From contig JBAYGS010000001.1 of assembly GCA_041666545.1 (NCBI GenBank), positions 217,942-281,941 of the forward strand: 64,000 nt of DNA. The letters run 5' to 3'. The notes under the pieces are model-generated. The model was not told the origin of the DNA. It saw only the letters and a list, made by a program, of their open reading frames with translations, and did not search any database. The position numbers and the translations under genes are program-made. Shown here in pieces: positions 5,031 through 45,438 of this stretch. The DNA comes from Minisyncoccota bacterium (GTDB taxonomy: Bacteria > Patescibacteriota > Minisyncoccia > Phycocordibacterales > JBAYGS01). Each line of letters opens with the position of its first letter. The stretch's first letter is position 1.

Positions 5031-5120
5031 ACACATCTCCCACTATCGAGGATTCGATATGTATTATATAGTATATGACAAAAGGTTGGCCTTTTCACTT
5101 AATTAGAAATTAAAAAAAAT

Positions 5121-5681
5121 ATGGAGACTAAATCAAAATTTGTCGCGACCATTCCGGAGCCAAAGTTGGCCAGACTTTTATTTGCCGACACCCGACTGGC
5201 CATGCTTTGGCTCGTTATCCGACTCTATGTTGGTTATGAATGGCTAATGGCCGGAATTTCAAAACTTAATTCTCCGGCTTGGTTAGGCGAACAGGCTGGC
5301 ACCGCCCTCAAAGGATTTCTGGCAGGAGCCCTACAAAAAACCGTAGGCGAGCACCCTGATGTTGCCGGCTGGTATGCGAGCTTCATTCAAAATTTCGTAC
5401 TGAATCACCCAATCGTTTTTTCCAATCTGGTAGTTTATGGCGAAATCGCGGTTGGTCTGGGATTGATTTTGGGTTTGTTTACCGGCATTGCCGCCTTCTT
5501 CGGCAGTTTTATGAACCTCAACTATCTTTTGGCTGGCACCGTGAGCACCAACCCTGTTCTGGGCATTTTGCAGTTATTTTTGATTCTAGCTTGGCGTATT
5601 GCCGGCTGGTACGGACTAGACCGTTTCGCTTTGCCAAAGCTTGGGACACCCTGGAAGCACGGCGAGATGTTTGAGAAGTAA
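5121..5681 (+). CDS. DoxX-family membrane protein
   Basis: Four predicted TM segments, DoxX-like spacing (LRLYVGYEWL..G..K). Confidence 0.6.
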   Translation: METKSKFVATIPEPKLARLLFADTRLAMLWLVIRLYVGYEWLMAGISKLNSPAWLGEQAGTALKGFLAGALQKTVGEHPDVAGWYASFIQNFVLNHPIVFSNLVVYGEIAVGLGLILGLFTGIAAFFGSFMNLNYLLAGTVSTNPVLGILQLFLILAWRIAGWYGLDRFALPKLGTPWKHGEMFEK

Positions 5682-5706
5682 ATTTTCGAAAAACTAGGGA
5701 TTAATG

Positions 5707-5734
5707 AAAACCACTAGCACCCGCTAGTGGTTTT
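5707..5734 (+). terminator. intrinsic terminator AAAACCACTAGC..GCTAGTGGTTTT
   Basis: 12-bp stem with flanking A/T tracts (bidirectional-capable). Confidence 0.65.
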
Positions 5735-5797
5735 CATTCTGACTTTTGCAACTCTCAAAAATTTTGCTATTATAAGCCAGCTCTTTGATTTATCACT

Positions 5798-6111
5798 ATG
5801 CCAGATAATAGAAAATACGCAGATCGTCGAGAAGCCTTGATTAAGGCCGTAGCAAAGCGTAGAAAAAAATTAAGCTGCTGGCTATTGAATACAAGGGCGG
5901 AAAATGCCAAGTTTGCGGTTATGAAAGGTATCCGGGAGCATTAGAACTTCATCATCTAGACAAGCGAGACAAAAGTTTCGCAATTGGTGATAAAGGGTAC
6001 ACAAGATCCTGGGAAAAAGTAAAAGCGGAACTAGATAAGTGTGCCTTGCTGTGTGCCAACTGTCACCGAGAAGTCGGAGCGGGCATAACGAAATTAGACA
6101 GCGCAGAGTAA
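5798..6111 (+). pseudogene. HNH endonuclease (~104 aa) interrupted by a -1 frameshift in an A7 tract (either a pseudogene or programmed/transcriptional slippage)
   Basis: Frame 1 ATG 5798..stop 5944 (MPDNRKYADRREALIKAVAKRRKK...); frame -1 continues from the A-run at ~5863 to 6111 with the HNH motif (CQVCGY..LELHHL...CALLCANCH). The frames join at AGAAAAAAATTAAG. Confidence 0.6.
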
Positions 6112-15614: not shown

Positions 15615-16358
15615 ATGATAGATAAACTCATGCCGAAAGGCTATTTCGACGGGGTCCAGCGTGAAATGGTTCGCGCCGGATTTGCTCACATCTCAACGGT
15701 GCCGATCGACAGCACCGAATGTGAGTACCATGTCCCGACAGTCGCCGCTCGGGCCACTTCCATATTCTTTCACAAGCACGGGAAGGGGTTCGTCGTGATG
15801 CTCCGGTACAACGAACACATTGAGGACTCCGGGAATCCGCGAAAGGGAAACTGGCGAGTGGACTTTTACATTCGTTTCAAATCCTTCCGAACCCTACTCC
15901 AAGAGAATCCTCACTGGCTCGAGGACACCCTTCACGAGCACGGGGGTGGCATCTACCACGACATGCCGATCTTCGGGTCAACAAAGGTGGAGATCGAGGG
16001 GTTCAGAAGTTACGGCAGTATGAGCATTGAACGAGACTGCGAGAACGAGCAGGTCGTTCTGCATTTTGAAGAGCCTTACAGCCGGTCCGAGACCCTATCA
16101 CCAACCGAGCTGATTGTAAAAGTTGATCGGGTGTATCGGGCTGTCAAGAAATACCTCGACCGCGGGCCAATTTTTAAGCCCTCACTTCTCGACCTCGTCC
16201 CCCACTATACCTTCTCTGGACAAGACAATTTCACCCTGCCGTGGAAGACGGAGAAGCTGGAAGAAACCTTCTGGTCCAAGTTTGACTGGCACTACTTCCG
16301 CCATTTGGTCGTTCGCCCTTGGGGCTACAACTATCGACGGAAGGAGGCTACCGCCTAA
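15615..16358 (+). CDS. hypothetical protein (247 aa)
   Basis: AAGAAAGGAAAAATG RBS; terminator downstream. Confidence 0.55.
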   Translation: MIDKLMPKGYFDGVQREMVRAGFAHISTVPIDSTECEYHVPTVAARATSIFFHKHGKGFVVMLRYNEHIEDSGNPRKGNWRVDFYIRFKSFRTLLQENPHWLEDTLHEHGGGIYHDMPIFGSTKVEIEGFRSYGSMSIERDCENEQVVLHFEEPYSRSETLSPTELIVKVDRVYRAVKKYLDRGPIFKPSLLDLVPHYTFSGQDNFTLPWKTEKLEETFWSKFDWHYFRHLVVRPWGYNYRRKEATA

Positions 16359-16363
16359 TTCAC

Positions 16364-16400
16364 CCGCTCCGCGTGCGCAAGCATGTCGGAGCGGTTTTTT
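16364..16400 (+). terminator. intrinsic terminator CCGCTCCGCGTGCGCAAGCATGTCGGAGCGG + T6
   Basis: Read in sequence. Confidence 0.75.
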
Positions 16401-16419
16401 ATTTGATGATGTGGCGCGA

Positions 16420-16497
16420 CCGAAGTTTTGCGAGGGCAAAACTTCGGCTTTTTATCTTCTTCGCTATTGCAGTGTTTTGCAAAACACTGCAATAGCG
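16420..16497. terminator. two further hairpins between convergent genes: CCGAAGTTTTGC..GCAAAACTTCGG+T5 and the perfect palindrome CGCTATTGCAGTGTTTTGCAAAACACTGCAATAGCG
   Basis: Inverted repeats read in sequence. Confidence 0.5.
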
Positions 16498-16558
16498 AGC
16501 ACGGCAATTAAAAAATCCCCCGAGCGACTAGCGCTAGAGGGACTATGACGAAAACAAA

Positions 16559-17551
16559 CTACTTCCCTGCCCCATGGCCGTTTCCGTTCAGAGCCACTTC
16601 CGAGAATTTCCCGTTTTTCGGGTCTTCCTCGGTTGAGAGTGTCCGAAACGAATCCGGATGAGACAAGTTGAACTTGCTCACATGGACGCGATGTTCCGGC
16701 CGGAAGCCTTGCTCCAAGACCTTAGCCACCATCGCTGCAAACTCCGGCGTGGTTTTGACCTTGGTCGAGAGAGCCTGGCGCGGCAAGAGCTGATCAAAGA
16801 CAATCCTCGCTCCGGTCGTGATTGAATTGCCCGAAACATCCGGCTGCCAGAACTGTGAGAGAGTGACGATTCGCGAACCAAGAAAAACCGCTTCCTCGAT
16901 ATCGTGGGTGACGAAAATCACCGTCGTCTTGTACTTCTCCCAAAGCTCCAGGATGAAGACCTGCAACTCTTCACGAGTCGACGGATCCAAAGCCCCGTAG
17001 GGTTCGTCCATGCAGAGAATTTTCGGCATAGCGAAGAGGTCGATTGTAATCAGCGTTTGGGCAATCGCCACTCGCTGTTTCATCCCACCCGAAAGTTCGT
17101 GAGGATACTTGTCCCCGGCGCCTTCGAGCCGAATTTTTTTGAGATATCCTTCGGCCAGCAATCTGGCCTGTCGGTTCCACTTCGGCGACCATAGTTCCCG
17201 CCAAGGATCTGCTTGGTACTTGAGGCTCAAGAGGATATTCCCTAAAACAGTGAGATGTGGAGCCAGAGTGTAATTCTGAAACACCACACCACGCCTGCGA
17301 TCAGGGAAACCGGCCGGACCGCCCATAATTTGAAACTGCAGAGCGGTATCGACTTGCTCCTGCCCAGTAATCAAACGGAGAAGGGTCGACTTGCCACAAC
17401 CGGAAGGCCCGACCATGGTCACGAACTCGCCACTCTTGATTTTGATGTCCACATTGTTGAGCACCACTTTGCGGCCACCCGGAACTTTCGGATCCGGATA
17501 GCCGTGGTAAGCGCTCTCAACCAGAATGTCGTACTTGGTTTTTGTCTCCAT
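16559..17551 (-). CDS. ABC transporter ATP-binding protein, NitT/TauT (SsuB/TauB-like) family, with C-terminal extension
   Basis: Walker A GPSGCGKST, signature LSGGMKQRVAIA, Walker B, H-loop. Confidence 0.85.
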   Translation of the reverse strand: METKTKYDILVESAYHGYPDPKVPGGRKVVLNNVDIKIKSGEFVTMVGPSGCGKSTLLRLITGQEQVDTALQFQIMGGPAGFPDRRRGVVFQNYTLAPHLTVLGNILLSLKYQADPWRELWSPKWNRQARLLAEGYLKKIRLEGAGDKYPHELSGGMKQRVAIAQTLITIDLFAMPKILCMDEPYGALDPSTREELQVFILELWEKYKTTVIFVTHDIEEAVFLGSRIVTLSQFWQPDVSGNSITTGARIVFDQLLPRQALSTKVKTTPEFAAMVAKVLEQGFRPEHRVHVSKFNLSHPDSFRTLSTEEDPKNGKFSEVALNGNGHGAGK

Positions 17552-17560
17552 ATTTCCTTT

Positions 17561-18412
17561 CTAGTTGCTGACTTTGCTATACCAAGCGAAGCAACGCAAC
17601 TTAAGCGAGAGCTTTAGGATGTAGTCGCAACTGTAGGCCAGGGCGGTGATATACATCACATACGGAATAATCAGGGCCATGTTCATGTACCTCTGTTGGA
17701 GGTAAACCCGATAACCCAAACCTTCCGTTGACGCTACCGCTTCTGACGCAATCACAAAGATCCAAGCGGCGCCGAGCGACACTCGAACCAAGTCAATGAG
17801 TCGCGGAAACATCTGTGGCACCACGATGCGCATCAAGACTTCAAACTGCGACGCACCAAGAGTCAATTGCTTGACCTTAACCTCGTTCGGGATTTGCTCC
17901 ACCATTTGTTCGACGCTTCGCGCAATCGGGATCCCGATGCCGAAAACAATCAGAAAAATTTTGGAAGCTTCACCGATACCAAGCGCCACCAAGACGATGA
18001 CTAGCACCGCCAAGGGGTTGATATTTGAGAGGACAGTAATAATCGGCATAAACAAGGACCGCAGGCCCGGGAAAAGTCCGATCATAATTCCGGCCACATA
18101 GCCAAAGACTGCGGAAATACCGACACCGATGGCAAGCCTTCGCAGACTCGCCTTGGTATCTTCGAGGAAAAAATTCTTGCCCGAACGCTTGTCCGGGACA
18201 GTGATTATTTCCTTCATTTCGCCGTACATCTGACTGAAGTACGGCATCAGTTTGTCATCCGGATTTTTTTCGTGACGCTTTTGGGCGATCAGGAAATAAA
18301 CCAGGAGCAAGAGCGCAACCGGCAAGAGTCCGAGAAGTTTTGAAAGCTTCTCGCCCGGTTTGGCATTGATGCCAAAGAATAACGGAGTCCGACAATGGAT
18401 GTTGTTGTCCAT
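17561..18412 (-). CDS. ABC transporter permease, SsuC/TauC-like (BPD inner-membrane component)
   Basis: 6 TM segments, EAA-like loop region. Confidence 0.8.
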   Translation of the reverse strand: MDNNIHCRTPLFFGINAKPGEKLSKLLGLLPVALLLLVYFLIAQKRHEKNPDDKLMPYFSQMYGEMKEIITVPDKRSGKNFFLEDTKASLRRLAIGVGISAVFGYVAGIMIGLFPGLRSLFMPIITVLSNINPLAVLVIVLVALGIGEASKIFLIVFGIGIPIARSVEQMVEQIPNEVKVKQLTLGASQFEVLMRIVVPQMFPRLIDLVRVSLGAAWIFVIASEAVASTEGLGYRVYLQQRYMNMALIIPYVMYITALAYSCDYILKLSLKLRCFAWYSKVSN

Positions 18413-18488
18413 TTGGTTCCTTTCTAGTTTGTTTGTTTTTAAAGAACAAGCTTTTTAGGGCTTAAATCCTTACTGGGTTCTGATTTTG

Positions 18489-18516
18489 AGTATACACATT
18501 TTCAGCCGTCTGTCAA
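18489..18516 (-). promoter_or_regulatory. candidate sigma-70 promoter (TTGACA-16-TATACT) for permease/ATPase genes; -35 sits at the MITE insertion junction
   Basis: Minus-strand read GGGGTTGACAGACGGCTGAAAATGTGTATACT. Confidence 0.45.
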
Positions 18517-18634
18517 CCCCGTTAGAGATAGGTCGTCGCAACGACGACCGTGGCCGTCACTGTTTCCAAACATTTTGTGTAAAAGCTAAGTTGGTTTCGT
18601 GATCGCTATTCCTAACAAAAAATCTCTAACGGGG
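18517..18634. mobile_element. MITE-like element copy 2 (118 bp), TIR CCCCGTTAGAGAT/ATCTCTAACGGGG, flanked by 4-bp direct repeat TCAA
   Basis: 13-bp perfect TIR; internal hairpin GGTCGTCGCAACGACGACC; ~85% identical to copy at 29221; lies between the binding-protein and permease genes of the ABC operon. Confidence 0.7.
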
Positions 18635-18668
18635 TCAAGACAAATAACGACACCGGTACGCGTTAGCG

Positions 18669-18690
18669 CACGACACCAATACACGAATAG
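18669..18690 (+). repeat. 21-nt motif CACGACACCAATACACGAATAG (copy 2) followed by ATTCGTG/CGAATA short repeats (to ~18745)
   Basis: Match to 1544-1564 and 50379-50399. Confidence 0.7.
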
Positions 18691-18740
18691 CTGAATTCGT
18701 GTGTGCGTATTCGTGGTCTCGCTATTCGCGTACTTTATTC

Positions 18741-18812
18741 GTATGCCCTATTTGTAAGGGTTCTTAACATAAAAACCCCTCGCCTGCCGTAGCAGATGAG
18801 GGGTTGGGCCGG
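18741..18812. repeat. degenerate copy of the palindromic repeat module (TTACAAATAGGGCATACGAATA, palindrome core deleted) + terminator hairpin for the binding-protein gene
   Basis: Shares flanks TAAGGGTTCTTAACA and CGAATA with copies at 22305, 25890 and 42040. Confidence 0.5.
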
Positions 18813-18836
18813 AACGCTTCGCGCTCCGGCAAATAA

Positions 18837-19871
18837 TTACTTCAAATAACTGGTGGGATCCTTGTAGTGGATCTTCACATTCTTCGGATTGCCGTAAACC
18901 GACCCATCGGGAAATTCGATCCCGATATGTTGGGCCGACTTCGCACCTTGACCAAGCAGGCCATGATCGAAACAGAACTCCGCCACGGTCTTGGCTGCCT
19001 TCTTAGCTTGCGGGCCGCTGGCAAAAGCCTGCGCATCCGCCGGCTTGTAGAACATGTAGGTCGTCTTCAACTGGGCCTTGAACTCGGCGACCGTACCACC
19101 GGCGAATTTCGCCATGGCCGCAATCGCTTCATCCGTTTTCTTGCCCTGGCCGGTCATGATCTCCATCGCCTCAAACCATGCTCCGACCAGTGCCCTTTTG
19201 ACACCTTCCGGAGCGTCGCGACGAACCACCATAAGATCCTGGATTTCGCCGGGAATCTTGGATGAGTCGAAGACCATCTTCGCGCCGGGCAAATTACGCA
19301 CCTGCATCAAGATCGGGTTCCAGGTGACGCAAGCGCCCTTGGGACCGGAACTGGCGAAGGTGGCACCGATGTTAGCATCCGAAGTGTTGACCTCGGTCAC
19401 ATCGCCGTCCTTCATTCCTTCGGCCTTGAGAGCTTGGGAGAGAAGATAGCTGGAAACCGAGTCCTTCACGATCATGAACTGTCGACCCTTCGCTTCGCGC
19501 AAAGATTTGGCATTCATGAGCACCACTCCGTCGTTGCCGTTCGAGTAGTCACCGACCACGAGGATGTCGGAATCGATACCGCCGGAGGCCGGCATATCGA
19601 GACAGTCCATGATGGTCATCGCGCAACCCACAGCCGAACCGGCGGTGTACTGGTTGATCGAGGTGACATAGTCATTGATGAGGACAATCTCGACTTTCAC
19701 GCCGTGCTTGTCCGCATGCTTTTTCATAATGCCGGAGTCGCTGATGTATTGCCACGGCTCCCAGCCGGTGTAATGGGACCAGAGATACCGATAGGTTTCG
19801 CCGGCCTGCACTGCAGTGGAAGCAACCAAACTGATGATGGTCAAAATAAGAAGGCTGAGGTATTTTTTCAT
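18837..19871 (-). CDS. ABC transporter substrate-binding protein, NMT1/SsuA/TauA-like, with signal peptide
   Basis: MKKYLSLLILTIISLVASTAVQA signal; NMT1-like periplasmic binding fold features. Confidence 0.75.
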   Translation of the reverse strand: MKKYLSLLILTIISLVASTAVQAGETYRYLWSHYTGWEPWQYISDSGIMKKHADKHGVKVEIVLINDYVTSINQYTAGSAVGCAMTIMDCLDMPASGGIDSDILVVGDYSNGNDGVVLMNAKSLREAKGRQFMIVKDSVSSYLLSQALKAEGMKDGDVTEVNTSDANIGATFASSGPKGACVTWNPILMQVRNLPGAKMVFDSSKIPGEIQDLMVVRRDAPEGVKRALVGAWFEAMEIMTGQGKKTDEAIAAMAKFAGGTVAEFKAQLKTTYMFYKPADAQAFASGPQAKKAAKTVAEFCFDHGLLGQGAKSAQHIGIEFPDGSVYGNPKNVKIHYKDPTSYLK

Positions 19872-20035
19872 GCTGACTTTTCCTTTCTTGCCCGAACAGG
19901 CGGAGCCTGTTTTAGGGCTTTCTGACTTCTCGTTTTTGTTTTACCCGAGCAATTCTTATTGCTTTAGGGTTTTGTTTTCTGACTGATGGCCCACGGCAAG
20001 ACCGTCCTGCCGTGGGCCGATTCCTTCCCAACCAA

Positions 20036-21271
20036 TTAGGCATTGAGAGGGGCACCGGAAGGCTCGAGCTCGAGGCTAATCGTCGAACGTTGCGCGTTGC
20101 CGCGTTCCATCCGACCAATCACCTTCTCTCCTTCGCCAGCCATCCGATCCATCTCCGCAATGTTTTGCGCCATTTGCGGCAAAGCTTCCTGCTTAAACCG
20201 AGAAATGTCGTCAACAGCAGACACCACGTCTGCGAAACACGTCTTCAGCTTATCAAGACTCAGAGATTGCCCGGAAGCCCGCTTGTTGACATCGGCCACA
20301 CCTGTTTTGACAAGTTGGCCCATTTGGACAAGCATTTCGTTGGCAGTCTCATCCATGGCTTCGAGACTCTTCAGAATCACACGCTGATCAGCAAGGGCGA
20401 TTGACGCCGCGGCACCAATCCTGAGAGCATTGACTGTCACCTCTTCACACCGGCGCACTCCGCGAATCAATTCGCGATTAGTACGACGGATAACTTCGAA
20501 GACGATCACGCCGTTCTGATTGATCAGTAGGTTTTGCTGAAGGTCCACGATCCGTTGGCGGAGAGGGAACAAGACTTCTTCGTTAAGAAATTTGCACTTC
20601 TCGCTTTCCGGATCAATGCTGGCAATTTTCTCTGCAAGCTTATCGTCGAGACGTCTCGCAACCTGAACCGTCTTCTGCAGACGCAAGATCAGGCTGCGCA
20701 TTTCCGCTTGATCCTCACTCAGAAAATCGTTGTCCCTCTGCAATTGGGCTGCCCCTTCTCGCATTTGGAAAACGATCGCCTCGATTACGCCACTGGCCGA
20801 TTGGTACTTGGTAAAGTACCGGTTGGCCGTAATCCCCACAAACGGAATGTACGACAACACTCGTCCAAAGGCACCGGGTGCCAAGATGTTGTAGCGAGCA
20901 GGATTGATATGATCAACCTGCACTTTGAGATCAATCAGCGATTTCGCCACCGGCCGACCTTCGGTTGTGGTTGCCAATTTCCCAACTTGTCGATTAAGGA
21001 GGCCGCTTTTGGCGAGCAATCCTTTGACGAGCGGGGCGCCGATTGATTCAACAGCTGCCTCCATCTGGACTCTTTGGCTGGGCTGATTCAGATCACAACC
21101 AAGAATCTTGTCGAGCACTTCTTGAGCGGTTTGATCCACCTGAAGATCGACTTTTTTCTTGCTGTCCAAATCATCCGCGCTCAAAAAACCCAAATCCCTT
21201 CTGACCTGATCAGGTTTTGCAACCTGTAAAGGCGCCACTGGCGCCGCTGACACGAGAACTTGTTCTGACAT
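20036..21271 (-). CDS. TelA-like (toxic anion resistance / YaaN-like) coiled-coil protein
   Basis: 411-aa all-helical Q/L/A/E-rich protein recalling the TelA family; immediately follows an XpaC-like gene as in Bacillus xpaC-yaaN; AGAAAGGAAG RBS. Confidence 0.5.
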   Translation of the reverse strand: MSEQVLVSAAPVAPLQVAKPDQVRRDLGFLSADDLDSKKKVDLQVDQTAQEVLDKILGCDLNQPSQRVQMEAAVESIGAPLVKGLLAKSGLLNRQVGKLATTTEGRPVAKSLIDLKVQVDHINPARYNILAPGAFGRVLSYIPFVGITANRYFTKYQSASGVIEAIVFQMREGAAQLQRDNDFLSEDQAEMRSLILRLQKTVQVARRLDDKLAEKIASIDPESEKCKFLNEEVLFPLRQRIVDLQQNLLINQNGVIVFEVIRRTNRELIRGVRRCEEVTVNALRIGAAASIALADQRVILKSLEAMDETANEMLVQMGQLVKTGVADVNKRASGQSLSLDKLKTCFADVVSAVDDISRFKQEALPQMAQNIAEMDRMAGEGEKVIGRMERGNAQRSTISLELEPSGAPLNA

Positions 21272-21303
21272 ATGTTATCTCTTCCTTTCTTCTGTTCTGC
21301 TGT

Positions 21304-22161
21304 TTAGGTTTGCTTTTCCACTGGCAAATCGAGAGGATTAACCTTCGATCTGTTATTGACTCGATTAATCAGACCGACCAATTCACTCATGGCACCTTCC
21401 AACTCGCCATTGCCTTGACCTTTGATTTTGAGCGCAGCGGAGCCGGCCTGATCGATAGCTGTGAGCACTTCTTCGTTTCGAGCCAAAAGCTCGGCGACCT
21501 CAGCTTGGCTGTCGTCGTAAAGCTTGGCTCGCTCCTCCAAAGTTTTCACAGTTCGCTCGTCAGCCGAAGTGCGTATCAACTTTCTTTTCAACAAGTCGAG
21601 CTTCCTCGAAATATCACCGCGATTGATATCGCTGATGTTAGTGAGAATGTTCGCAACTCGCTCCAAATTACTGACGGCAGAAGCGTAAACCACTTCTGCC
21701 GAACCCAGAAATCTGGTAAAAGACAGCTCGCCTTCGTTGAGAACTCGGGAAAGAACAGTTCGCAGATTTTCAAACTTGTCTGCCAACTGCCCGACCTGTT
21801 CTCGACCTTGATTGCAACCAAGTTTTTTCAAGTCAGTCGCAACCGTCTCCAACTTTTGCTCTTTCATGACTTCAAATCGATCGTGAAGCTCCGCGTAATA
21901 CCTTTGCAGGCACGCGTCGCGTCCACCGAAAAATTTGATGGCCCAATTGGCGGCACCGACGAAGGTGCAACCGGCGGCAATCCCAAGCGCTGCCGGGACT
22001 GTCACCATGCCAAAAAGTCCCAAACCAAATCCTGCCGCCACGCCTAGGGCCGGGGGCCAAAGGGTAAGCGGATGCTGAATCGTATCTGACAAAGCCGCCC
22101 TGCGAGCGGCCGTTTCGCTGTAATCCAGCTCAACTGACGCGCCTTTCGGGTTTTCGTTCAT
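21304..22161 (-). CDS. XpaC-like membrane protein (two TM helices + long coiled coil)
   Basis: TM pair (LGVAAGFGLGLFGMVTVPAALGIAAGCTFVGAANWAIKFF) followed by helical region; AGAAAGG RBS; identity by architecture and synteny only. Confidence 0.45.
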   Translation of the reverse strand: MNENPKGASVELDYSETAARRAALSDTIQHPLTLWPPALGVAAGFGLGLFGMVTVPAALGIAAGCTFVGAANWAIKFFGGRDACLQRYYAELHDRFEVMKEQKLETVATDLKKLGCNQGREQVGQLADKFENLRTVLSRVLNEGELSFTRFLGSAEVVYASAVSNLERVANILTNISDINRGDISRKLDLLKRKLIRTSADERTVKTLEERAKLYDDSQAEVAELLARNEEVLTAIDQAGSAALKIKGQGNGELEGAMSELVGLINRVNNRSKVNPLDLPVEKQT

Positions 22162-22223
22162 TTTCAGCCTTTCTATATATTTTTAGTTATTTGAAGTTTT
22201 CAACGAACACAAATCTGTTTCCC

Positions 22224-22251
22224 ACTATACACAAAGTATAGTTTTTGTCAA
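22224..22251 (-). promoter_or_regulatory. candidate sigma-70 promoter TTGACA-16-TATAGT for xpaC-telA-like operon; shares an identical 26-nt block with the promoter at 25837
   Basis: Minus-strand TTGACAAAAACTATACTTTGTGTATAGTGGGAAACAGATTTGTG. Confidence 0.5.
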
Positions 22252-22304
22252 GCATTTAGGCCAAACTTGGCGTGGTCTCGGATATTAAAAAACAGTTAAT
22301 AACC

Positions 22305-22345
22305 GTTACGAATACGCCTGCCTGCCGGTAGGCAGGGCACATGAA
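22305..22345. repeat. palindromic repeat module copy: TTACGAATACG-CCTGCCTGCCGGTAGGCAGG-GCACATGAATA (20-bp palindrome, one central mismatch)
   Basis: Copies at 25890-25935 and 42040-42080 (perfect palindrome), degenerate at 18741. Confidence 0.7.
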
Positions 22346-22354
22346 TATATAAAA

Positions 22355-22382
22355 AACCGTCTCCCTCTTCGGAGAGACGGTT
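22355..22382 (-). terminator. intrinsic terminator AACCGTCTCTCCGAAGAGGGAGACGGTT + T6 (minus strand) ending the AAA gene
   Basis: Read in sequence. Confidence 0.75.
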
Positions 22383-22389
22383 GCTTCGA

Positions 22390-24033
22390 TCAGACACCGA
22401 TCTGATGAAGCTTTTGCACATTGGCAATCTGGTCCATGAAGTCGTGCGTGAACTCCCGCAATGCATCTCCATGGTCCATGCCAAACTCCTGCCGTGCGAT
22501 ATTGTCGACGGCTCCGACCAGATCCGCATCGGTCAAACCTTCGGTCGGCTCCGGCTTCAAGAGTTCCCGCTCCAAAGCCAGACGCTTGGCATCGGCGACA
22601 ATCGCCGGAATCATAGACCCACTCACAATATGGGCCAAGGTGAAGTCAACAGTCGTACCGTCAGCCTTCTTGATTTCGTAGATTCTCCGCTCCGGAGAAA
22701 AAACCGAAATCGCGCCGACTTCGGCCAACAATTCAGCCGAGGTAGTGGAGGAAATCGCCACACCCTTAAAGTTCTTGAGAAAGATTTCCCGAACCGCTAC
22801 CTTCGTGGGCCGTTTGATTTCGATTTTCACATCGATTCGACCGGGCCGAATTGCCGCACTATCCAAACTCTCCGGCTTGTTGGTCGCCAGAATCACAATC
22901 GCGCCCGATTCCCGCACGCCTTGCATCTGCGCCAGAAAGGCCGGCACAATCGTCTTCAAGACATCACTCGAAATCCCCGAATCGCGTTTGGCCAAAATCG
23001 CTTCAGCCTCGTCGATGAAGATAACCGCCATGATGCCGGTCCGACGATAGAACTCGCGGGCTCGCGCAAAGATGTGGCGGATGGTCGCTTCCGGCACGCC
23101 GACATACTTGTCGAGCAACTCCGGACCAGAAACCAGGATGAAGCCGCCTTTGGGACTCACACCTTTCTCTTCGCAACGTTTGACCAAGGAAGTGTAGACC
23201 GCCTTGGCAAACATTGTCTTGCTACAACCCGGAGGGCCGTAGAGCAGAAAGCCGGCCGCCGGCTTCTTGCCAAAGAATTTGTAATGCTTTGGAAAGCGCA
23301 TCGGCCTCTCCATCGAGTCCAAGAACAACGCCTTGGCCGCTTCTTGGCCACAAATGTCGTCCCAAGTGATGCCGGTCGCCTGATCGAGCTCAAACGAGTC
23401 GTCTTCGAGACCGTAATTTTCGAGCACGATCGCGAGGGCCGAGTCGAGTACGACTCGGCCATTCGGAACCAGTTTGCCAGCAAACTTACCGGCAAAAACT
23501 GTCCGGCGTCCACCCGAAACATCTACCACCGCCAATTCCTTGTCGATAATCTGGGAGACGAAAGCGATGCTACCGGTCGGAACTGCGGGCTCCACACCAA
23601 CGGCGCGGAGAGTTTCGCGTTCCAGCTTGACCACATCACCCGGTTCGATGTTGAGACCGTCGATCGGCACCTCAATCATCTGACCCGAGTAATTCACGGT
23701 CGCAAACCGCTCTTTTTCGCCTTCGGCGAGTTCCAGATCGCAAGCGCCACCCTGCACACCGAACATACCGATGCGATAACGATTTTTGGCACCGTCAGGA
23801 AAGCTGACCCACGACCAGCCCTCTTCCCTCGGGTCTGGCGCAAAAATCCGGCCAACCCCTTTCGGGGCTGAAGCGGCAAACTTACTGCCGGGATTAACCG
23901 TGACCAGAGTCCCAGTTTTCCGGAGCATGCTCGGAGTCGGTTTCGGCATCCGAGAACTCACTTTGAGAACTGTCGCCTGAACCAGAGGGTAACGAATTGG
24001 ATTTTGTTCCAAGTCTTGATTGAAGTCTGTCAT
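22390..24033 (-). CDS. AAA+ ATPase, classical (CDC48/FtsH-like) clade, with ~270-aa N-terminal beta-rich domain
   Basis: ITWDDICGQEAAKALF...LLYGPPGCSKT (Walker A), IFIDEAEAIL (Walker B), ILATNKPESLDSAAIRPGRID (SRH); start at ATG 24033 with AAAGGAAA RBS (track start 24087). Confidence 0.85.
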   Translation of the reverse strand: MTDFNQDLEQNPIRYPLVQATVLKVSSRMPKPTPSMLRKTGTLVTVNPGSKFAASAPKGVGRIFAPDPREEGWSWVSFPDGAKNRYRIGMFGVQGGACDLELAEGEKERFATVNYSGQMIEVPIDGLNIEPGDVVKLERETLRAVGVEPAVPTGSIAFVSQIIDKELAVVDVSGGRRTVFAGKFAGKLVPNGRVVLDSALAIVLENYGLEDDSFELDQATGITWDDICGQEAAKALFLDSMERPMRFPKHYKFFGKKPAAGFLLYGPPGCSKTMFAKAVYTSLVKRCEEKGVSPKGGFILVSGPELLDKYVGVPEATIRHIFARAREFYRRTGIMAVIFIDEAEAILAKRDSGISSDVLKTIVPAFLAQMQGVRESGAIVILATNKPESLDSAAIRPGRIDVKIEIKRPTKVAVREIFLKNFKGVAISSTTSAELLAEVGAISVFSPERRIYEIKKADGTTVDFTLAHIVSGSMIPAIVADAKRLALERELLKPEPTEGLTDADLVGAVDNIARQEFGMDHGDALREFTHDFMDQIANVQKLHQIGV

Positions 24034-24215
24034 ATCATTTCCTTTTTTTGAGTTTTTCCAAATAACAATCTGAAATATGTTTAGCATAAAACAATGATTT
24101 TGTCAAACAAAAAACCGGTAGTGCCTCCCAGTCTTATGCATCGCCCGGACCCGCCGGACGAAATAAGATGGAAGACACCACCGGTAAACTCAGCCGACTA
24201 ATCGGCCCAAACCAG

Positions 24216-25790
24216 TCAGTAGGATTCGGCCATGAGCGTAATCTCCACTCGTGGCAGACGATACCCATACGCCCGATCAGATTCGCCCGGGGCCCGAGGC
24301 AAGGGTTTCTTGCCACCGAAGCCTTCGGTCCGCATTCGGTTTTCGTCAATCGAATAGGTAATCGAGAGATACCTCGAAACCGATTCGGCCCGCTGTTCCG
24401 AGAGGGTGGCATTGGCAGTCTGGTCACCATCAAGCGAGGTGTGTCCGCCGATAAGAATCCGAAAAGTCGGATAGTGCTTCAGCCTTTCGACCGCCGCGTC
24501 CAACTTTTCTTTCTCGGAAACTCCTAACTCAGAAGAGCCGGTCTGAAAGATAATCGGGTCAACCCGAATACTTCCGACTGATCGAAGCTTGCTCCACTGC
24601 GCCGGAGTCAAAACCTTGAACGACCGCGCCAGCGCCGCCGTCGGATCGAGAGCTTTGACTCCCCCATCGAGACTTGCGAAACCGGTCCGCAAACCATTTT
24701 GGTAAATCGCCGTAATGAAGGTGCTGTTGATAATCCGATAAGGATCTTTGTCCGGTAAGGGACTCTCCTTGAAGTCGCCGGCCTCCAAAAGAATGGAGAC
24801 TGTCGAACCAATCGTATCAACCAAGCCTTGCTCAGCAATCTGCCCAGGACCGCTCACTCCAAACCACTCTTGGCAATTCTCGCTAAGATTTACAAAGCGT
24901 ACGCCATCGAGCATGGTCTGGATTGCCTCCTTGGGCACCTTGAGTTCGTCGTGAATGTCCTTCTTAAACTCTTCGGGGTTGTCGGCATAAAACTTCAACA
25001 CTCGGAAGTAGGTTTTGAGGAACAGGTCAACCCGCTCCGGATACTTGGTGGCAAACTCGCGGTTCACTACCAAAATATCGACTACGGCCCGGCTGATGCT
25101 TTCCGTCCCGATAATCTTGCCAACGCCCGGAATCTGCAGAGCCTTGGAGACATTCGGCTCCCAGAGTATTGCCATCGAAACTTTTTTGCTCTGCAACAGG
25201 CGCAAGGCTTCTTGAGAATCTTTGGTCTCGAAACGATGTTCGCGATCAAGATTTTTCAGAGCCGGCACATTGAAGTGCGAAGCGACCGTTTTTAGCAATT
25301 GATGACTCGGCGAACCTTGCGTGTAAGCAATCCGTGGCGAGACCCCACTTTTCAGCGAGTCGAGGTTTTGCACCAAATTGGTGTAGGCCACGATTGCGTC
25401 ATCGCCTTTGGATTCGTCGATGACCATGATAATCGTCGCCGGAAAATCGTGGGCGGCGGCGTTCAGGATTTCGGAGTCGACTGTCATCACCGCAAAGTCC
25501 AATTTGCCATCGCGCAGATTTTTATTCCGCGCTTGGTAATCGGCTCCGTCGTTCTGACACTCGAGCAAATAGCCCTCGTTGCGAAGGAACTTTTTCATCC
25601 GTCCGGAACTGACCGGGAAATACCCGATCCAATCGTCGTAGGCCAAAGTAATCTTGGCTTTGACATCTTTGGCGTCACTCGTTTTCTTCTGCAAATGGCT
25701 TTTGACCATGAGCAGAATTTTGAACGCGCCGAAGATGCCCAACATCACCACGACCATAACGATAAACGGGGCGAAGCTACTTTTTTTCAT
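24216..25790 (-). CDS. membrane-anchored fusion protein: NMT1/SsuA-like substrate-binding domain + C-terminal OmpA-like peptidoglycan-binding domain (paralog 2)
   Basis: N-terminal TM; ITLAYDDWIGYFPV binding-domain start; C-terminal OmpA_C motifs (LIGGHTSLDGDQTANATLSEQRAESVSRYL, RMRTEGFGGKKPL, RLPRVEITL); AAAAGGATAAAAATG RBS. Confidence 0.7.
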   Translation of the reverse strand: MKKSSFAPFIVMVVVMLGIFGAFKILLMVKSHLQKKTSDAKDVKAKITLAYDDWIGYFPVSSGRMKKFLRNEGYLLECQNDGADYQARNKNLRDGKLDFAVMTVDSEILNAAAHDFPATIIMVIDESKGDDAIVAYTNLVQNLDSLKSGVSPRIAYTQGSPSHQLLKTVASHFNVPALKNLDREHRFETKDSQEALRLLQSKKVSMAILWEPNVSKALQIPGVGKIIGTESISRAVVDILVVNREFATKYPERVDLFLKTYFRVLKFYADNPEEFKKDIHDELKVPKEAIQTMLDGVRFVNLSENCQEWFGVSGPGQIAEQGLVDTIGSTVSILLEAGDFKESPLPDKDPYRIINSTFITAIYQNGLRTGFASLDGGVKALDPTAALARSFKVLTPAQWSKLRSVGSIRVDPIIFQTGSSELGVSEKEKLDAAVERLKHYPTFRILIGGHTSLDGDQTANATLSEQRAESVSRYLSITYSIDENRMRTEGFGGKKPLPRAPGESDRAYGYRLPRVEITLMAESY

Positions 25791-25836
25791 TTTTATCCTT
25801 TTTGATTGGTTTTAAAGGTTCACAAATCTGTTTCCC

Positions 25837-25864
25837 ACTATACACATAAAATTTGTTTTGTCAA
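25837..25864 (-). promoter_or_regulatory. candidate sigma-70 promoter TTGACA-16-TATAGT; identical -10/leader block to 22224
   Basis: Minus-strand TTGACAAAACAAATTTTATGTGTATAGTGGGAAACAGATTTGTG. Confidence 0.5.
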
Positions 25865-25889
25865 CATAAATTCTGGATGGCTTTCTTAT

Positions 25890-25935
25890 TCGCATGCCCT
25901 GCCTGCCGGCAGGCAGGCCTATTCGTAAGGGTTCT
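25890..25935. repeat. palindromic repeat module copy with perfect 20-bp palindrome CCTGCCTGCCGGCAGGCAGG (25898-25917) flanked by TATTCGCATG / CCTATTCGTAAGGGTTCTTAACA
   Basis: Lies between the VWA-gene terminator and the 25837 promoter. Confidence 0.75.
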
Positions 25936-25945
25936 TAACAAAAAA

Positions 25946-25973
25946 GCCCCACACATGCATGCACGTGTGGGGC
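25946..25973 (-). terminator. intrinsic terminator (CCCCACACGTGCATGCATGTGTGGGG + T-tract, minus strand) after the VWA gene
   Basis: Read in sequence. Confidence 0.65.
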
Positions 25974-25987
25974 GACTGACATTGCAA

Positions 25988-26713
25988 CTAGAACTTGTCG
26001 GACTCGGCCAACACCTCCGCCAAACCCTTTTCAAGGTCCGCCGGATTGTTGGCTTCCTTGTAAACCGTTCGTCCCGGTTGATTGAGCGAGTGCCGGCTAC
26101 CAATGTGGAAGCCAATGGTGTGAATCACTACGGGTGAATCCCGCAAGATGATGTTCACATCATTTCCCGGATCAAAGCCTGCGTTGGCTTCCCCGTCGGT
26201 CACAATGACCAAGTGGTACTCGCCATAGCCAAGTTGCCGAACCGCTTGCTTGCGCAGTTGTTCGTAGCCGAGGCGAACCGCACTCGAGAGCGGAGTCGCA
26301 CCGCCGGCACCAGCTGACTGTACAGTTTGGTAGAACTGCTTGCGATTGTTAACCCCCAGGGGCACTCTTTCGGAGGGTCCGTTCGAGTCGAAGATGGCCA
26401 AACCAAGAGAAGTCTCGGCCGGGATTTTCCGACCAAAGGCTTCAATTGCCCGCTTGGCCGTCACAATCTTCGGCTCGCCGTTCTTGGCATCCGCCATACT
26501 GCCGGAGCAATCAAAGACGAGGTAGATGTTTCGTCGCATCAAATCGGCGTCGAGCACCACGCCCTTGGTCTCCACTCCCTTGATCCAGACATCTCCGAGA
26601 CGACTGGGATTGGGCGGAGCGGCCGTGGCCTGACTCGGCGGTTGATCGCCACAGCCCGAGATGATGAACACCCCGAGGAACAGTAAACCGAAGCGCTTGA
26701 TGAGCTTATTCAT
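25988..26713 (-). CDS. lipoprotein with von Willebrand factor type A (VWA) domain
   Basis: Lipobox LFLGVFIISGC; MIDAS motif DCSGSM; LVIVTDGEANAG; ATGA overlap with upstream gene. Confidence 0.8.
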   Translation of the reverse strand: MNKLIKRFGLLFLGVFIISGCGDQPPSQATAAPPNPSRLGDVWIKGVETKGVVLDADLMRRNIYLVFDCSGSMADAKNGEPKIVTAKRAIEAFGRKIPAETSLGLAIFDSNGPSERVPLGVNNRKQFYQTVQSAGAGGATPLSSAVRLGYEQLRKQAVRQLGYGEYHLVIVTDGEANAGFDPGNDVNIILRDSPVVIHTIGFHIGSRHSLNQPGRTVYKEANNPADLEKGLAEVLAESDKF

Positions 26714-28449
26714 TTCGCACCTCCCGCCGGCGCGAAGACCTGCATTTCAGTGTCACCAACAGGGATGAGATTGAACACCACCCGCATGTTGGAAGCCCAC
26801 TCTTGTTGAGTCTTGGGACGGATTGGTTCGCCATTCGCAATGCCGGTCTTGGGTTGTTCAAACCCGTGACCAACCACCGCATATTGCGACGGGTCCATCA
26901 CCACACCCTTCGACTTGGCGTAGTTGAGCAAGCTTTCCCGAACCGCGATTGCCCGCGTCAAGGAAAGATTCTTGGCCGACTGCCGCAAACGCGACAGAAC
27001 CAACTCCGGCGCATTCGCCAATTTCTTGTCGATATACTGCGTCGGGTCGGCATGACCCTCAACCGTGAGAATCGCACCGCCGTAGGTAGCTGCCAATTCA
27101 ATCGCCTTGTCATAATCAGCCTTGTACAGTTCAGCGTTGAAGCTGTTCTGGTTCGGGCTGAAGTAGATTTCGAGTGAAAGAATCGAGCCGTTGGCCAGGG
27201 GTCCTTGCTTCGTCCTTTGGTCAATAACTTTGGCAACTTCGCTCACTTGAAACCGAGGAGTTTCGCTCGCCACGGTTTGAGTCAGACCCCTTTTCAGAGC
27301 TTCGTAATCAAACCCGGCATGGGATAGACCGACCTTGCTGGTCAGAAGACCCATCGCGAGAAATGCATCCTGCATCTCCTTCGTCAAGGTCTCAAACTTA
27401 CGAACTTCCGTCGGTGTCGCAAAGAACTTCACGTTCCCCACATAGCCGACAAACTCACAATCGCCGTAAAGTCCCTTGGCATCAGCAACCGCCTGCTCGC
27501 TGTCGAGTAAGATTTTCGCCGAAGCCGTCATCAACTTGTCATACTCGGCCTTGCGATTGGCACTACCGATTACGAGCTGACTGAGACTTTCCTGAGCCGA
27601 CAGAAGTGCATGGACGAACTTTCCAACCTCCGCTTTATGAGCCTCGAAGTAATCGCTTCTCACTCCGTAAACATCGGGAATGATTCGGCTGGCAAGGGTG
27701 CGGAGAAGGATTTTCGCCCCCTTCACCGACCCTTCAGAGCCGGTGCCGACGGTGCCGTTTGAAGTCAAAGCCGCCGCATCGGGCGAGATGACAAAACAAG
27801 CGTCCACAGAGGGATCCTTCTTGAAGGCCTCGCTAGGAGCTTCCGCCGTACCCGTCAAGTCTTTCACCCAGCGGATTTTGACGTCGCTCATCTGGAGGCC
27901 GGCACTCTTGAGGACCGTGGCAAGATATTCAACATGCGGGCTGTAGGCCTGCAAGCAGACGGTCTTGCCTTTCAAATCCTTGATTGTATTGATGCCGGAT
28001 TTAACCACCAAGCAGTCGCCACCAGATGACCAGGTCATCTGGTAGATGACAACCAATTTGGTGCGCGGGTCCTTCGCTGTCAATTCGGAAGCCTGATTCA
28101 TCATTCCTGCTGTGCCCCGCAGATACGGAGTCACGCCGGAAATATAATGCTCCAACTGCTTGGCGAAAACATCCTCGCGAACCAACTTGAACTTCAAACC
28201 GGCTTGGGCGAAGATACTGCCTGGCGCCGTATTCACGCCACCGCCATTCGCATGGATGGTGGCGATGTCGCCACCCCAGGTGATAATCGGAAGCTCCATC
28301 ACGGAACCTTCCTGAACCGGGCCAACCTTCGTCTTGACCACCTCGGTAAGAGGCGGCGAAGCGATGTACTGGGCCGCGGGGAGACTTAGACTGAACGCCG
28401 CCAAAAGGCCCACAAAAACTGCGAGCAACTTTATCTTGTATTTTTTCAT
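26710..28449 (-). CDS. secreted fusion protein: NMT1/SsuA-like substrate-binding domain + C-terminal OmpA-like domain (paralog 1)
   Basis: Signal peptide MKKYKIKLLAVFVGLLAAFSLSLPAAQ; C-terminal OmpA_C motifs (ILTVEGHADPTQ, LSLTRAIAVRESL, NMRVVFNLI); start ATG 28449 with AGGAAAGG RBS (track extension to 28515 rejected). Confidence 0.7.
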   Translation of the reverse strand: MKKYKIKLLAVFVGLLAAFSLSLPAAQYIASPPLTEVVKTKVGPVQEGSVMELPIITWGGDIATIHANGGGVNTAPGSIFAQAGLKFKLVREDVFAKQLEHYISGVTPYLRGTAGMMNQASELTAKDPRTKLVVIYQMTWSSGGDCLVVKSGINTIKDLKGKTVCLQAYSPHVEYLATVLKSAGLQMSDVKIRWVKDLTGTAEAPSEAFKKDPSVDACFVISPDAAALTSNGTVGTGSEGSVKGAKILLRTLASRIIPDVYGVRSDYFEAHKAEVGKFVHALLSAQESLSQLVIGSANRKAEYDKLMTASAKILLDSEQAVADAKGLYGDCEFVGYVGNVKFFATPTEVRKFETLTKEMQDAFLAMGLLTSKVGLSHAGFDYEALKRGLTQTVASETPRFQVSEVAKVIDQRTKQGPLANGSILSLEIYFSPNQNSFNAELYKADYDKAIELAATYGGAILTVEGHADPTQYIDKKLANAPELVLSRLRQSAKNLSLTRAIAVRESLLNYAKSKGVVMDPSQYAVVGHGFEQPKTGIANGEPIRPKTQQEWASNMRVVFNLIPVGDTEMQVFAPAGGAK

Positions 28450-28594: not shown

Positions 28595-28672
28595 GCATTT
28601 TCGCGGGTTGGACTATTTGACTTTTTATATTTGATATGTATAGTTGAAAAAGAAATTCCGACAAAAAAAATT

Positions 28673-29173
28673 ATGAAGACCTTCCTCACCCTCGTCACAC
28701 TTACACTCTGCGTCACTTTTGGAATTTATTTCTACCCGAACTACAGCAGTTGGATCAAGCAAAAAATTTCCGAATTCCGAAAGCACCAAAAGGACAAGGT
28801 GAAAACGGCCAATTTTGAGTTCATCGAAGTTCAGCCCGACAATCCCACCAATTCCGAGGTGGAAGTTCTCAACAGGTGGCTCAAGGACAACAGGGGGCAG
28901 AAAATTGCCGCCTTTACTCAAGTAGGTCTTGGCTATCTACTTTTGACCGAAGAGGGTGACAACTCTCGCCAACTCTTTGCCGCCCTCAATTGCGGTAGCC
29001 GAGATAGTTGGACCGCTGATAACGGATTTGGGGTTGCCGATTTGCAAAGACAGTTTCAACTTACCTGGCCAGCGAGCAAAATAACAAGTTTTGCTCCCTC
29101 GCTACAAATCCGGGCAAAAAAGGCTTACATAATCCTTTATGAGAGTCAGCTCTCTAATTTGCCGACAAGATAA
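28673..29173 (+). CDS. hypothetical membrane-anchored/secreted protein (166 aa)
   Basis: ATG 28673 (track 28631); hydrophobic N-terminus; terminator follows. Confidence 0.5.
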   Translation: MKTFLTLVTLTLCVTFGIYFYPNYSSWIKQKISEFRKHQKDKVKTANFEFIEVQPDNPTNSEVEVLNRWLKDNRGQKIAAFTQVGLGYLLLTEEGDNSRQLFAALNCGSRDSWTADNGFGVADLQRQFQLTWPASKITSFAPSLQIRAKKAYIILYESQLSNLPTR

Positions 29174-29208: not shown

Positions 29209-29220
29209 AAATTGATTTGA

Positions 29221-29339
29221 CCCCGTTAGAGATAGGTCGCCGCAACGACGACCGTAGCAGTTAAGGTGTCTCCGGTGTTCTAAACAAAAAGGAGTTTGGC
29301 TTTGTGACTGCCATTCTTAACAAAAAATCTCTAACGTGG
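29221..29339. mobile_element. MITE-like element copy 3 (119 bp), TIR CCCCGTTAGAGAT/ATCTCTAACGTGG, flanked by 4-bp direct repeat TTGA
   Basis: TIR, internal hairpin GGTCGCCGCAACGACGACC and sub-terminal TTCTTAACAAAAAA shared with copy 2; TTGACT immediately outside right TIR. Confidence 0.7.
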
Positions 29340-29416
29340 TTGACTTCCTACTTGAATATGATAATTATAGGTCAGAGTTCAAGCACAAAACCGAACTCGG
29401 AAAAGAAAGGAAAAGT

Positions 29417-44698: not shown

Positions 44699-44701
44699 AA
44701 A

Positions 44702-45433: not shown

Positions 45434-45438
45434 GTTTT

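Follow-up and report, generated by a model that had tools for sequence, protein, structure and literature searches.

A conserved gene cluster linking a TelA-family protein to peptidoglycan-anchored binding proteins and an importer probably specific for guanidine or urea

The stretch of DNA analysed here (the window, 64,000 nucleotides) is taken from contig JBAYGS010000001.1 of a Minisyncoccota bacterium. The subject of the analysis is a row of nine consecutive open reading frames (ORFs), all on the minus strand, at positions 16559-28449, which is bounded by plus-strand ORFs at 15615-16358 and 28631-29173. The nine genes had been described in a sequence-only reading of the window, and their coordinates were returned both by the ORF listing and by an independent gene caller run on the source contig, a metagenome contig of 341 kb (ENA ERZ27249449 k141_82438). 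At NCBI the proteins carry the label 'Candidatus Paceibacterota bacterium'. For g1 the independent caller placed the start at 28515, while the start at 28449 gives an N-terminal signal peptide as in the orthologues. The domain assignments of the sequence-only reading (TelA, VWA, AAA, OmpA, NMT1-type substrate-binding protein and NitT/TauT-type importer) hold for eight of the nine proteins in Pfam and NCBIfam. The window also carries rpoC, dnaG, rpoD, hisS and a UvrD-type helicase gene, and is therefore chromosomal. The nine genes are as follows.

g1: 26710-28449, minus strand, exported protein with an NMT1/SsuA-like binding domain and a divergent OmpA-like peptidoglycan-binding domain (Pfam, orthologues)
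g2: 25988-26713, minus strand, VWA-domain lipoprotein with an intact metal ion-dependent adhesion site (MIDAS) (Pfam VWA 38.5 bits, lipobox IISGC)
g3: 24216-25790, minus strand, N-terminal membrane anchor, TIGR03427/SsuA-like binding domain and canonical OmpA-like peptidoglycan-binding domain
g4: 22390-24033, minus strand, cytoplasmic classical-clade AAA+ unfoldase, Mpa/ARC-like, with Mib/HERC2-like N-domain, double oligonucleotide/oligosaccharide-binding (OB) domain and one AAA module
g5: 21304-22161, minus strand, hairpin of two transmembrane (TM) helices followed by a helical-bundle domain, unnamed family
g6: 20036-21271, minus strand, TelA family (toxic anion resistance), PF05816 168.4 bits
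g7: 18837-19871, minus strand, soluble exported substrate-binding protein (SBP), NCBIfam TIGR03427 406.7 bits against an equivalog cut-off of 333.9
g8: 17561-18412, minus strand, ATP-binding cassette (ABC) importer permease, TauC/NtrB-like, BPD_transp_1 61.8 bits and TauC 97 bits
g9: 16559-17551, minus strand, ATPase of an ABC importer, NitT/TauT type, ABC_tran 87.6 bits and ntrCD 169 bits

The conservation of this gene row was analysed in related sequences. Homologues of the AAA+ protein at 60%, 58% and 53% identity revealed the complete set in the same order at all three loci (L083; L084/L085, from an assembly labelled Verrucomicrobiae; and L086, labelled Patescibacteria group). The same gene order was found on at least 10 independent contigs, the full order g1-g2-(2-oxoglutarate/iron (2OG-Fe) oxygenase)-g3-g4-g5-g6-g7-g8-g9 being present on L083, L085, L086, L090-L093, L096, L098 and L100. 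A scan of metagenomes with the g5 alignment gave 19 loci, which by tblastn show the full order wherever the contig reaches and partial runs in order on the shorter contigs. The search with a profile for distant g5 relatives returned at least 25 proteins and included four distant members with usable contigs; the 1.2-kb contig of one further protein (P0170) holds no gene context. Distant relatives of g5 (22-26% identity) lie in the same cluster without the AAA+ gene on L109, on the P0307 contig and on the P0308 contig with L119. The eight-gene core without AAA+ was also found on six plasmid records of cultured Vibrio by tblastn of TelA and g3 against plasmids, the hosts being V. alfacsensis (pSEA2), Vibrio sp. 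04Ya108, V. rotiferianus and V. penaeicida.

Proteins of the versions that lack the AAA+ gene (L109, the P0307 and P0308 contigs and the Vibrio plasmids) are 25-45% identical to those of the window. The Vibrio counterpart of g5 was matched with an hhalign probability of 99.7%, and the Vibrio orthologue of g3 is 36-37% identical over 93% of its length. The Vibrio version is rearranged, with the ATPase gene first, and L004 is rearranged to g5-TelA-SBP-permease-ATPase-AAA. The flanking genes differ in every lineage, so the conserved block ends where the nine-gene row ends. The core consists of g1, g2, g3, g5, TelA and g7-g9, and the AAA+ protein and the oxygenase are lineage-specific additions. 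The gene of the PF10014 2OG-Fe oxygenase (102 bits) lies between g2 and g3 in about half of the AAA-containing clusters (L083, L084/L085, L090, L093, L100); it is absent from the window, where the gap between g2 and g3 is only 198 nt. The neighbourhood is clearly present in relatives, and the conserved gene order across many contigs bears out the earlier description of a candidate envelope-associated transport/stress cluster.

The importer g7-g9 gave an indication of a ligand class. Among cultured organisms, the proteins nearest to g7 (46-54% identity) are SBPs adjoining uca/UAAP1/UAAP2/atzF in Skermanella and Pantoea, in operons that encode urea carboxylase, allophanate hydrolase and a pair of 'urea amidolyase associated proteins'. 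On these scores and identities the importer is identified as an orthologue of the carboxylase-linked importer. In g7, residues W37, D114, W184 and D212 are invariant in seven sequences and position 40 is tryptophan in six and tyrosine in one; the TelA-linked SBPs and those linked to carboxylase alike conserve W37, W40, D114, W184 and D212. The SBP GimA of Synechocystis GimABC, which is of NitT/TauT type, binds guanidine with a dissociation constant (KD) of about 97 nM, and its guanidinium-binding residues W59, W62, F205, D135 and D233 form an aromatic cage with two aspartates (PMC12704784). The spacing of the g7 residues (offsets 3, 77, 147 and 175) agrees closely with that taken from the published GimA residue numbers (3, 76, 146 and 174), which suggests that the two pockets may be equivalent. 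According to literature cited in PMC12704784, the urea-carboxylase pathway carboxylates guanidine and deiminates carboxyguanidine. The importer is probably one for guanidine or urea, as judged from family membership and residue spacing. A Chondrocystis plasmid binding protein, considered as a stand-in for GimA, was dropped since its gene context gave no support.

The exported proteins g1, g2 and g3 were then compared with their orthologues. Signal peptides on g1 and g7, the lipobox of g2 and the N-terminal TM helix of g3 are conserved in relatives, and the N-terminus of g1 (MKKYKIKLLAVFVGLLAAFSLSLPAAQ) resembles the signal peptides of its orthologues. Orthologues of g1 are present in all full clusters at 37-60% identity. 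The NMT1 match of g1 (31 bits) lies above the Pfam cut-off, whereas its OmpA match (PF00691, 20.3 bits) lies below the gathering cut-off of 27.2; among eight orthologues, all gave the OmpA match at E<0.01 and six gave the NMT1 match. The OmpA-like domain of g1 keeps a GHAD ... LSLTRA motif, in which G465, D468, S496, R499 and A500 are invariant among orthologues. At the loci examined g2 is always the next gene after g1, and in the window its start overlaps the stop of g1 by 4 nt (ATGA), which follows from the coordinates and had been pointed out by the sequence-only reading. The MIDAS residues of g2 (D68, S70, S72, T140 and D173, in the pattern DxSxS ... T ... D) are invariant in six orthologues.

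The domain assignment of g3 is stronger than that of g1, with 55.5 bits for Pfam OmpA against the cut-off of 27.2, 64 bits for NCBIfam SsuA_fam and 31 bits for TIGR03427, and its OmpA-like domain matches OmpA-like domains of PDB down to E 6e-12. The binding domain of g3 aligns with g7 at 22% identity over 196 aa (BLASTP E 2e-6); of the five candidate pocket positions of g7 it has retained four. These positions (an aromatic residue at 57, D131, W210 and D238) are kept in all five g3 orthologues of 29-64% identity. The alignment and the kept pocket residues suggest that g3 still binds the same ligand as g7 or a related one. The sequence-only reading had placed the binding domains of both fusions in the class of the importer SBP; the present result agrees with that, directly so for g3. 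The fusion of SBP folds to peptidoglycan anchors is an observation of wider interest.

The protein g6 belongs to the TelA family as the sequence-only reading had stated, since its PF05816 score is far above the cut-off of 30 and the match spans model positions 39-330 of 332. It is preceded by g5 with a gap of 5-42 nt in the window and the five orthologous loci measured, and at the remaining loci whose sequence extends that far TelA is the gene directly after g5, L104 being the exception. The g5 family, of about 926 cluster representatives, had been called XpaC-like. That membership could not be upheld: g5 and 19 close relatives gave no PF10112 (XpaC) match at E<=1, PF10112 was not among the 25 most-matched Pfam families listed for 58 diverse relatives at E<=0.1, and no other Pfam family was assigned either. 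The functional analogy with XpaC still applies: g5 is a small membrane protein, its N-terminal TM helices are followed by a helical domain, and its gene lies directly upstream of that of TelA. Profile searches with g5 and TelA against PDB sequences gave nothing significant. A relationship of g5 to TelA was rejected (hhalign probability 1.7%), as was one to the TelA-neighbour proteins of Sphaerotilus and Bacillus, which hhalign found unrelated.

Other TelA loci were also inspected. On a Methanosphaera plasmid (L111) a 410-aa zinc-ribbon protein is encoded at 4630-5862, upstream of an archaeal TelA. It gave a weak local hhalign match to g5 (probability 21%) at the most conserved g5 motif, GELTxxRYL, which may represent a shared TelA-partner motif. 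Plasmids of Sphaerotilus (L113) and Variovorax (L114) carry a hypothetical protein (~375 aa), then TelA, then a vWA protein or a 'substrate-binding and VWA' fusion, then a small hypothetical protein. With such exported partners at these loci, the link of TelA to exported vWA or binding proteins may be general.

The AAA+ protein g4 matches PF00004 with 99 bits and also the CDC48/PAN/Mpa models, confirming its assignment to the classical clade. Its N-terminal ~215 residues are all-beta, the first ~100 forming a Mib/HERC2-like beta domain, and a double OB inter-domain of the Mpa-type OB ring precedes the single AAA module, which carries the complete catalytic and pore-loop set. The score against the Mpa/ARC equivalog TIGR03689 (244.4 bits) is below the cut-off of 504.75. 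Mpa and PAN end in proteasome-docking tails of the GQYL/HbYX type; in g4 the C-terminus reads ...KLHQIGV, and no such docking tail was seen. The cluster, the region examined for them, holds no proteasome or Pup genes. The occurrence of an Mpa/ARC-type unfoldase with a Mib/HERC2-like domain in Patescibacteria-labelled contigs, with no proteasome genes in the cluster, is of wider interest. A MoxR-like (AAA_3) identity was considered for g4 and rejected on the model matches given above.

The protein g4 is an accessory component, lineage-specific and absent from many versions of the cluster. Homologues of g4 at 44% and 37% identity lie in unrelated gene contexts. When genome contigs were searched with a profile of the AAA+ alignment, the matches listed were mainly actinobacterial Mpa/ARC proteins, and the full-length relatives used were L003 and L004. 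The 44%-identical homologue comes from the sample of the window (L087, k141_295620) and has an additional N-terminal coiled coil. Two small unannotated ORFs flank its gene, and the island around it carries a reverse transcriptase with bAvd (resembling a diversity-generating retroelement, DGR), Fic, RadC, a restriction-modification set, Vsr and a serine recombinase.

The intergenic gaps of the window cluster were scanned for regulatory signals, and the palindromic repeat, terminator-like hairpins and promoters noted by the sequence-only reading were found again. The predicted signals, among them two strong hairpins resembling intrinsic terminators, are listed below.

25837-25864, minus strand: predicted sigma-70 promoter for g3(+g4), TTGACA-16-TATAGT, 11/12 match
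22224-22251, minus strand: predicted sigma-70 promoter for g5-g6(-g7), TTGACA-16-TATAGT, 11/12 match
18489-18516, minus strand: predicted sigma-70 promoter for g8-g9, TTGACA-16-TATACT, 11/12 match
25946-25973, minus strand: terminator-like hairpin directly downstream of g2, 12 bp stem and T run
22355-22382, minus strand: terminator-like hairpin directly downstream of g4, 11 bp stem and T run

With internal terminators and separate promoters, the cluster of the window is probably not one operon and probably comprises about four transcription units (g1-g2; g3-g4; g5-g6-g7; g8-g9). At related loci these genes overlap or have spacers of 3-24 nt between them, in an operon-like manner. The g3 and g5 promoters have 56 nt in common at 82% identity, and an identical run of 22 nt, TATAGTGGGAAACAGATTTGTG, which takes in the -10 box and the first transcribed bases, occurs at 25821-25842 and 22208-22229 and nowhere else in the window. 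This identity could be that of a duplicated promoter or of a shared operator or leader.

Two kinds of repeat were observed in and around the cluster. An element of ~133 nt resembling a miniature inverted-repeat transposable element (MITE), with terminal inverted repeats TTGACCCCGTTAGAGAT ... ATCTCTAACGGGGTCAA, is present in two copies of 84-86% identity at 18512-18643 and 29212-29344. In both copies its outer end gives the TTGAC -35 box of a predicted outward promoter, on the minus strand for g8 and on the plus strand for the 29336 ORF. The second repeat consists of GTTAAGAACCCTTACGAATAGG adjoining a perfect palindrome, CCTGCCTGCCGGCAGGCAGG, and lies mostly just downstream of a terminator hairpin, at the following intergenic positions.

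1494-1515: repeat GTTAAGAACCCTTACGAATAGG/CCTGCCTGCCGGCAGGCAGG
18747-18787: the same repeat
22295-22347: the same repeat
25887-25939: the same repeat
42029-42071: the same repeat

The copies at 1494 and 42029-42071 mark it as a dispersed genomic repeat, which rules out a regulatory element specific to the cluster; it looks like a repetitive extragenic palindromic (REP-type) element of the genome. The GC content of the cluster (16001-28000) is 0.50-0.55 against 0.44-0.49 in the flanks, which together with the plasmid-borne core in Vibrio fits horizontal acquisition. The 64-kb window yielded neither a tRNA gene nor any Rfam family at the gathering score, and around the cluster there are many ORFs with no Pfam match on record. 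A MacB/FtsX permease with an HlyD-type adaptor is encoded at 43460-46971, ~15 kb from the cluster; in L086 a MacB/FtsX and HlyD-like set with an ABC ATPase (17329-20826) directly adjoins it.

Taken together, the nine genes are well supported as a single conserved system. We consider it moderately probable that they form an envelope-spanning uptake and stress system for a small guanidinium- or urea-like solute, with a working that can be drawn from topology and homology. The signals described above place g1, g2, g3 and g7 outside; the hairpin of g5, the anchor of g3 and g8 in the membrane; and g9, the g5 bundle, TelA and the AAA+ protein inside, the last two having no export signal. In the proposed working g3 would be held in the membrane by its N-terminal helix and on peptidoglycan by its OmpA-like domain, and g1, which is soluble, would likewise be tied to peptidoglycan. 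The VWA lipoprotein g2 could act as a metal-dependent (MIDAS) bridge that joins g1 and g3 into a wall-tethered platform. This platform would capture the small solute, and g7 would pass it to the permease and ATPase (g8-g9) for import. On the cytoplasmic face g5 would keep TelA at the membrane beside the transporter, the two forming a stress-protection or control arm as is thought for XpaC/TelA in Firmicutes. The Mpa/ARC-like AAA+ protein, added in the lineage of the window, would most likely remodel or recycle the cytoplasmic g5/TelA assembly. We infer the ligand, the physical contacts, the role of TelA and g5 and the substrate of the AAA+ protein from these comparisons.

Several results weigh against this interpretation. 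The ligand assignment is derived from family membership and residue spacing. A tblastn search for genes of guanidine or urea catabolism (uca, UAAP1/2, atzF, agmatinase-like) found none in the window and none up to 10 kb from the cluster at eight other loci, and the linkage to urea/guanidine carboxylase and associated proteins that is the hallmark of TIGR03427 is absent here. Likewise, no guanidine riboswitch was found with Rfam at gathering or permissive thresholds in the window cluster and four related loci. With neither catabolic gene nor riboswitch, the purpose of importing a guanidine- or urea-like solute is left unexplained. In L104 g5 is directly followed by the importer with no TelA within 10 kb downstream, so TelA is not obligatory; its mechanism is still stated as unknown in any organism. 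The proteins g1 and g3 have no similarity detectable by BLASTP. The predicted terminators and own promoters divide the cluster of the window, and co-expression is suggested only by the identical 22 nt of two units.

A different use of the same parts, as a kind of envelope device not recognised before, may tentatively be entertained, in which the wall-tethered SBP paralogues and the VWA bridge would sense a cationic guanidinium-type signal in the cell wall and would be coupled through g5 to TelA on the inner membrane face, with the Mpa/ARC-like unfoldase, working independently of a proteasome, resetting the assembly in some lineages. The signal could be free guanidine, or the guanidinium or amine groups of cationic antimicrobials. 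If this is true, TelA would for the first time have a defined input and a defined set of partners.

Plain nutrient scavenging, in which the importer would take up, with high affinity, guanidine, urea or a guanidino compound as a solute rich in nitrogen, the wall-tethered SBPs would serve as a periplasmic ligand sink and TelA and g5 would act only against toxicity, with no sensing or control, appears doubtful. The orthology of the importer to that of the guanidine/urea-carboxylase operon speaks for it, and GimA, of the same transporter class, is a nanomolar binder of guanidine, a compound toxic at millimolar levels (PMC12704784). The oxygenase found in about half of the AAA-containing clusters belongs to PF10014, a family that hydroxylates free amino acids, and so also hints at metabolism of an imported compound. 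However, scavenging has to contend with the lack of any guanidine or urea catabolic enzyme in or near the cluster, and the ordinary carboxylase-linked importers work without g1, g2, g3, g5 and TelA; five extra conserved proteins are many for an uptake accessory.

It is improbable that g1 and g3 are structural tethers, that is, SBP folds which have lost ligand binding and now only hold membrane and peptidoglycan apart in the manner of Pal or MotB, with the importer linked for regulation alone. The peptidoglycan-binding OmpA-like domains of both proteins, the membrane anchor of g3 and the absence of a demonstrated pocket in g1 would agree with such a role. The retention of four of five candidate pocket positions in g3 orthologues as far apart as 29-64% identity argues against it, as does the finding that g5 is accompanied more constantly by the importer than by any other partner.

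The sequence-only reading had compared the row with Ter/TerY-type stress loci. On such a reading the AAA+ protein would activate the VWA protein in MoxR fashion and TelA would act with Ter proteins. This comparison has been largely refuted and is very unlikely to be right. TelA and a VWA protein do occur together in the cluster, and the vWA or SBP-vWA proteins after TelA in Sphaerotilus and Variovorax point the same way, but no TerB, TerC, TerD, TerZ, kinase or PP2C phosphatase was found among the nine proteins (Pfam, NCBIfam) or the flanking genes. The analogy with AAA+/VWA pairs does not stand either: the AAA+ protein is PF00004 and Mpa/ARC-like, not MoxR; the exported VWA lipoprotein and the cytoplasmic AAA+ protein lie on opposite sides of the membrane; and many clusters keep the VWA protein without the AAA+ protein.

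A chance or hitch-hiking row, on a horizontally transferred island, of three independent modules (importer, TelA pair, OmpA/VWA envelope proteins) would agree with the raised GC content, the Vibrio plasmids and the separate transcription units of the window, but has very little to commend it when the components stay together down to 25-45% protein identity, with differing flanks and rearranged order, and neighbouring genes overlap in relatives. Conflict or anti-phage defence, in which invading elements would be the target of TelA together with the VWA and AAA+ proteins, is hardly credible: beside the plasmid-borne Vibrio cluster, the defence-like island (with its retron/DGR-type reverse transcriptase, Fic and restriction-modification genes) of the 44%-identical AAA+ homologue from the same sample and weak AAA-domain matches to IetA/TRIP13 models stand a PADLOC result with no specific match for any component (generic AAA/MotB only), no nuclease, toxin or other effector domain in Pfam or NCBIfam, and no known defence system with a binding-protein-dependent importer and three SBP paralogues.

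The cluster matters for TelA, which since the 1990s has been tied to resistance to tellurite, nisin, daptomycin and further agents that act on the envelope. The cluster gives TelA fixed conserved partners, namely a new 2-TM family, two wall-anchored SBPs, a VWA lipoprotein and a specific importer, and it suggests a ligand class to test. Since cultured Vibrio carry the core on plasmids, it can be studied genetically and biochemically with no need to grow the uncultured organism from which the window comes.

No description of the cluster was found in the full-text literature searched, in accordance with the sequence-only reading, which knew of no system combining these parts; the main comparative paper on Ter systems is outside the coverage of that literature, and a similar TelA neighbourhood may be described there. 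The cluster is built from known kinds of parts, and each can be set beside its nearest known system. Some Ter loci reportedly include vWA (TerY) proteins, as Anantharaman et al. are said to have described in 2012. Ter loci and the RK2 kilA operon (klaA-telA-telB) share a TelA-family protein with the cluster, but no TerB/C/D/Z, KlaA or TelB homologue was detected here, and the VWA protein here is an exported lipoprotein. Mpa/ARC and archaeal PAN resemble g4, Mpa/ARC in the double OB ahead of a single AAA module; Mpa/ARC has an N-terminal coiled coil where g4 has the Mib/HERC2-like beta domain.

The importer of the carboxylase operons (TIGR03427) is close to that of the cluster: g7 passes the cut-off and shares the invariant residues at the identities given above. 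The permease and ATPase of this importer and of GimABC are of NitT/TauT type like g8-g9, and the candidate pocket residues of g7 match those of GimA in spacing, by which, and not by alignment, the two were compared. The cluster differs from the carboxylase operons in having no carboxylase, carboxyguanidine deiminase, allophanate hydrolase, guanidine hydrolase or riboswitch; and the carboxylase-linked importers run without g1, g2, g3, g5 and TelA, the five extra conserved proteins of the cluster. Pal, the OmpA C-domain and the MotB anchors contain the OmpA-like domain with the ...LS..RA..V motif that is seen in g3 and more weakly in g1; in g1 and g3 the partner of this domain is an SBP fold and not a beta-barrel, just a lipid anchor or a stator plug. 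The XpaC-TelA (YaaN) pair of the B. subtilis sigma-W regulon, of L. monocytogenes (lmo1966-1967) and of E. faecium has TelA directly after a small TM/helical protein as in g5-g6, although g5 matches no XpaC profile. The Firmicute pair is induced by envelope-active agents or confers resistance to them (PMC6811118, PMC12791056, PMC3498285), and it stands alone, whereas the present cluster adds to such a pair the wall-tethered SBPs, the VWA lipoprotein and the importer.

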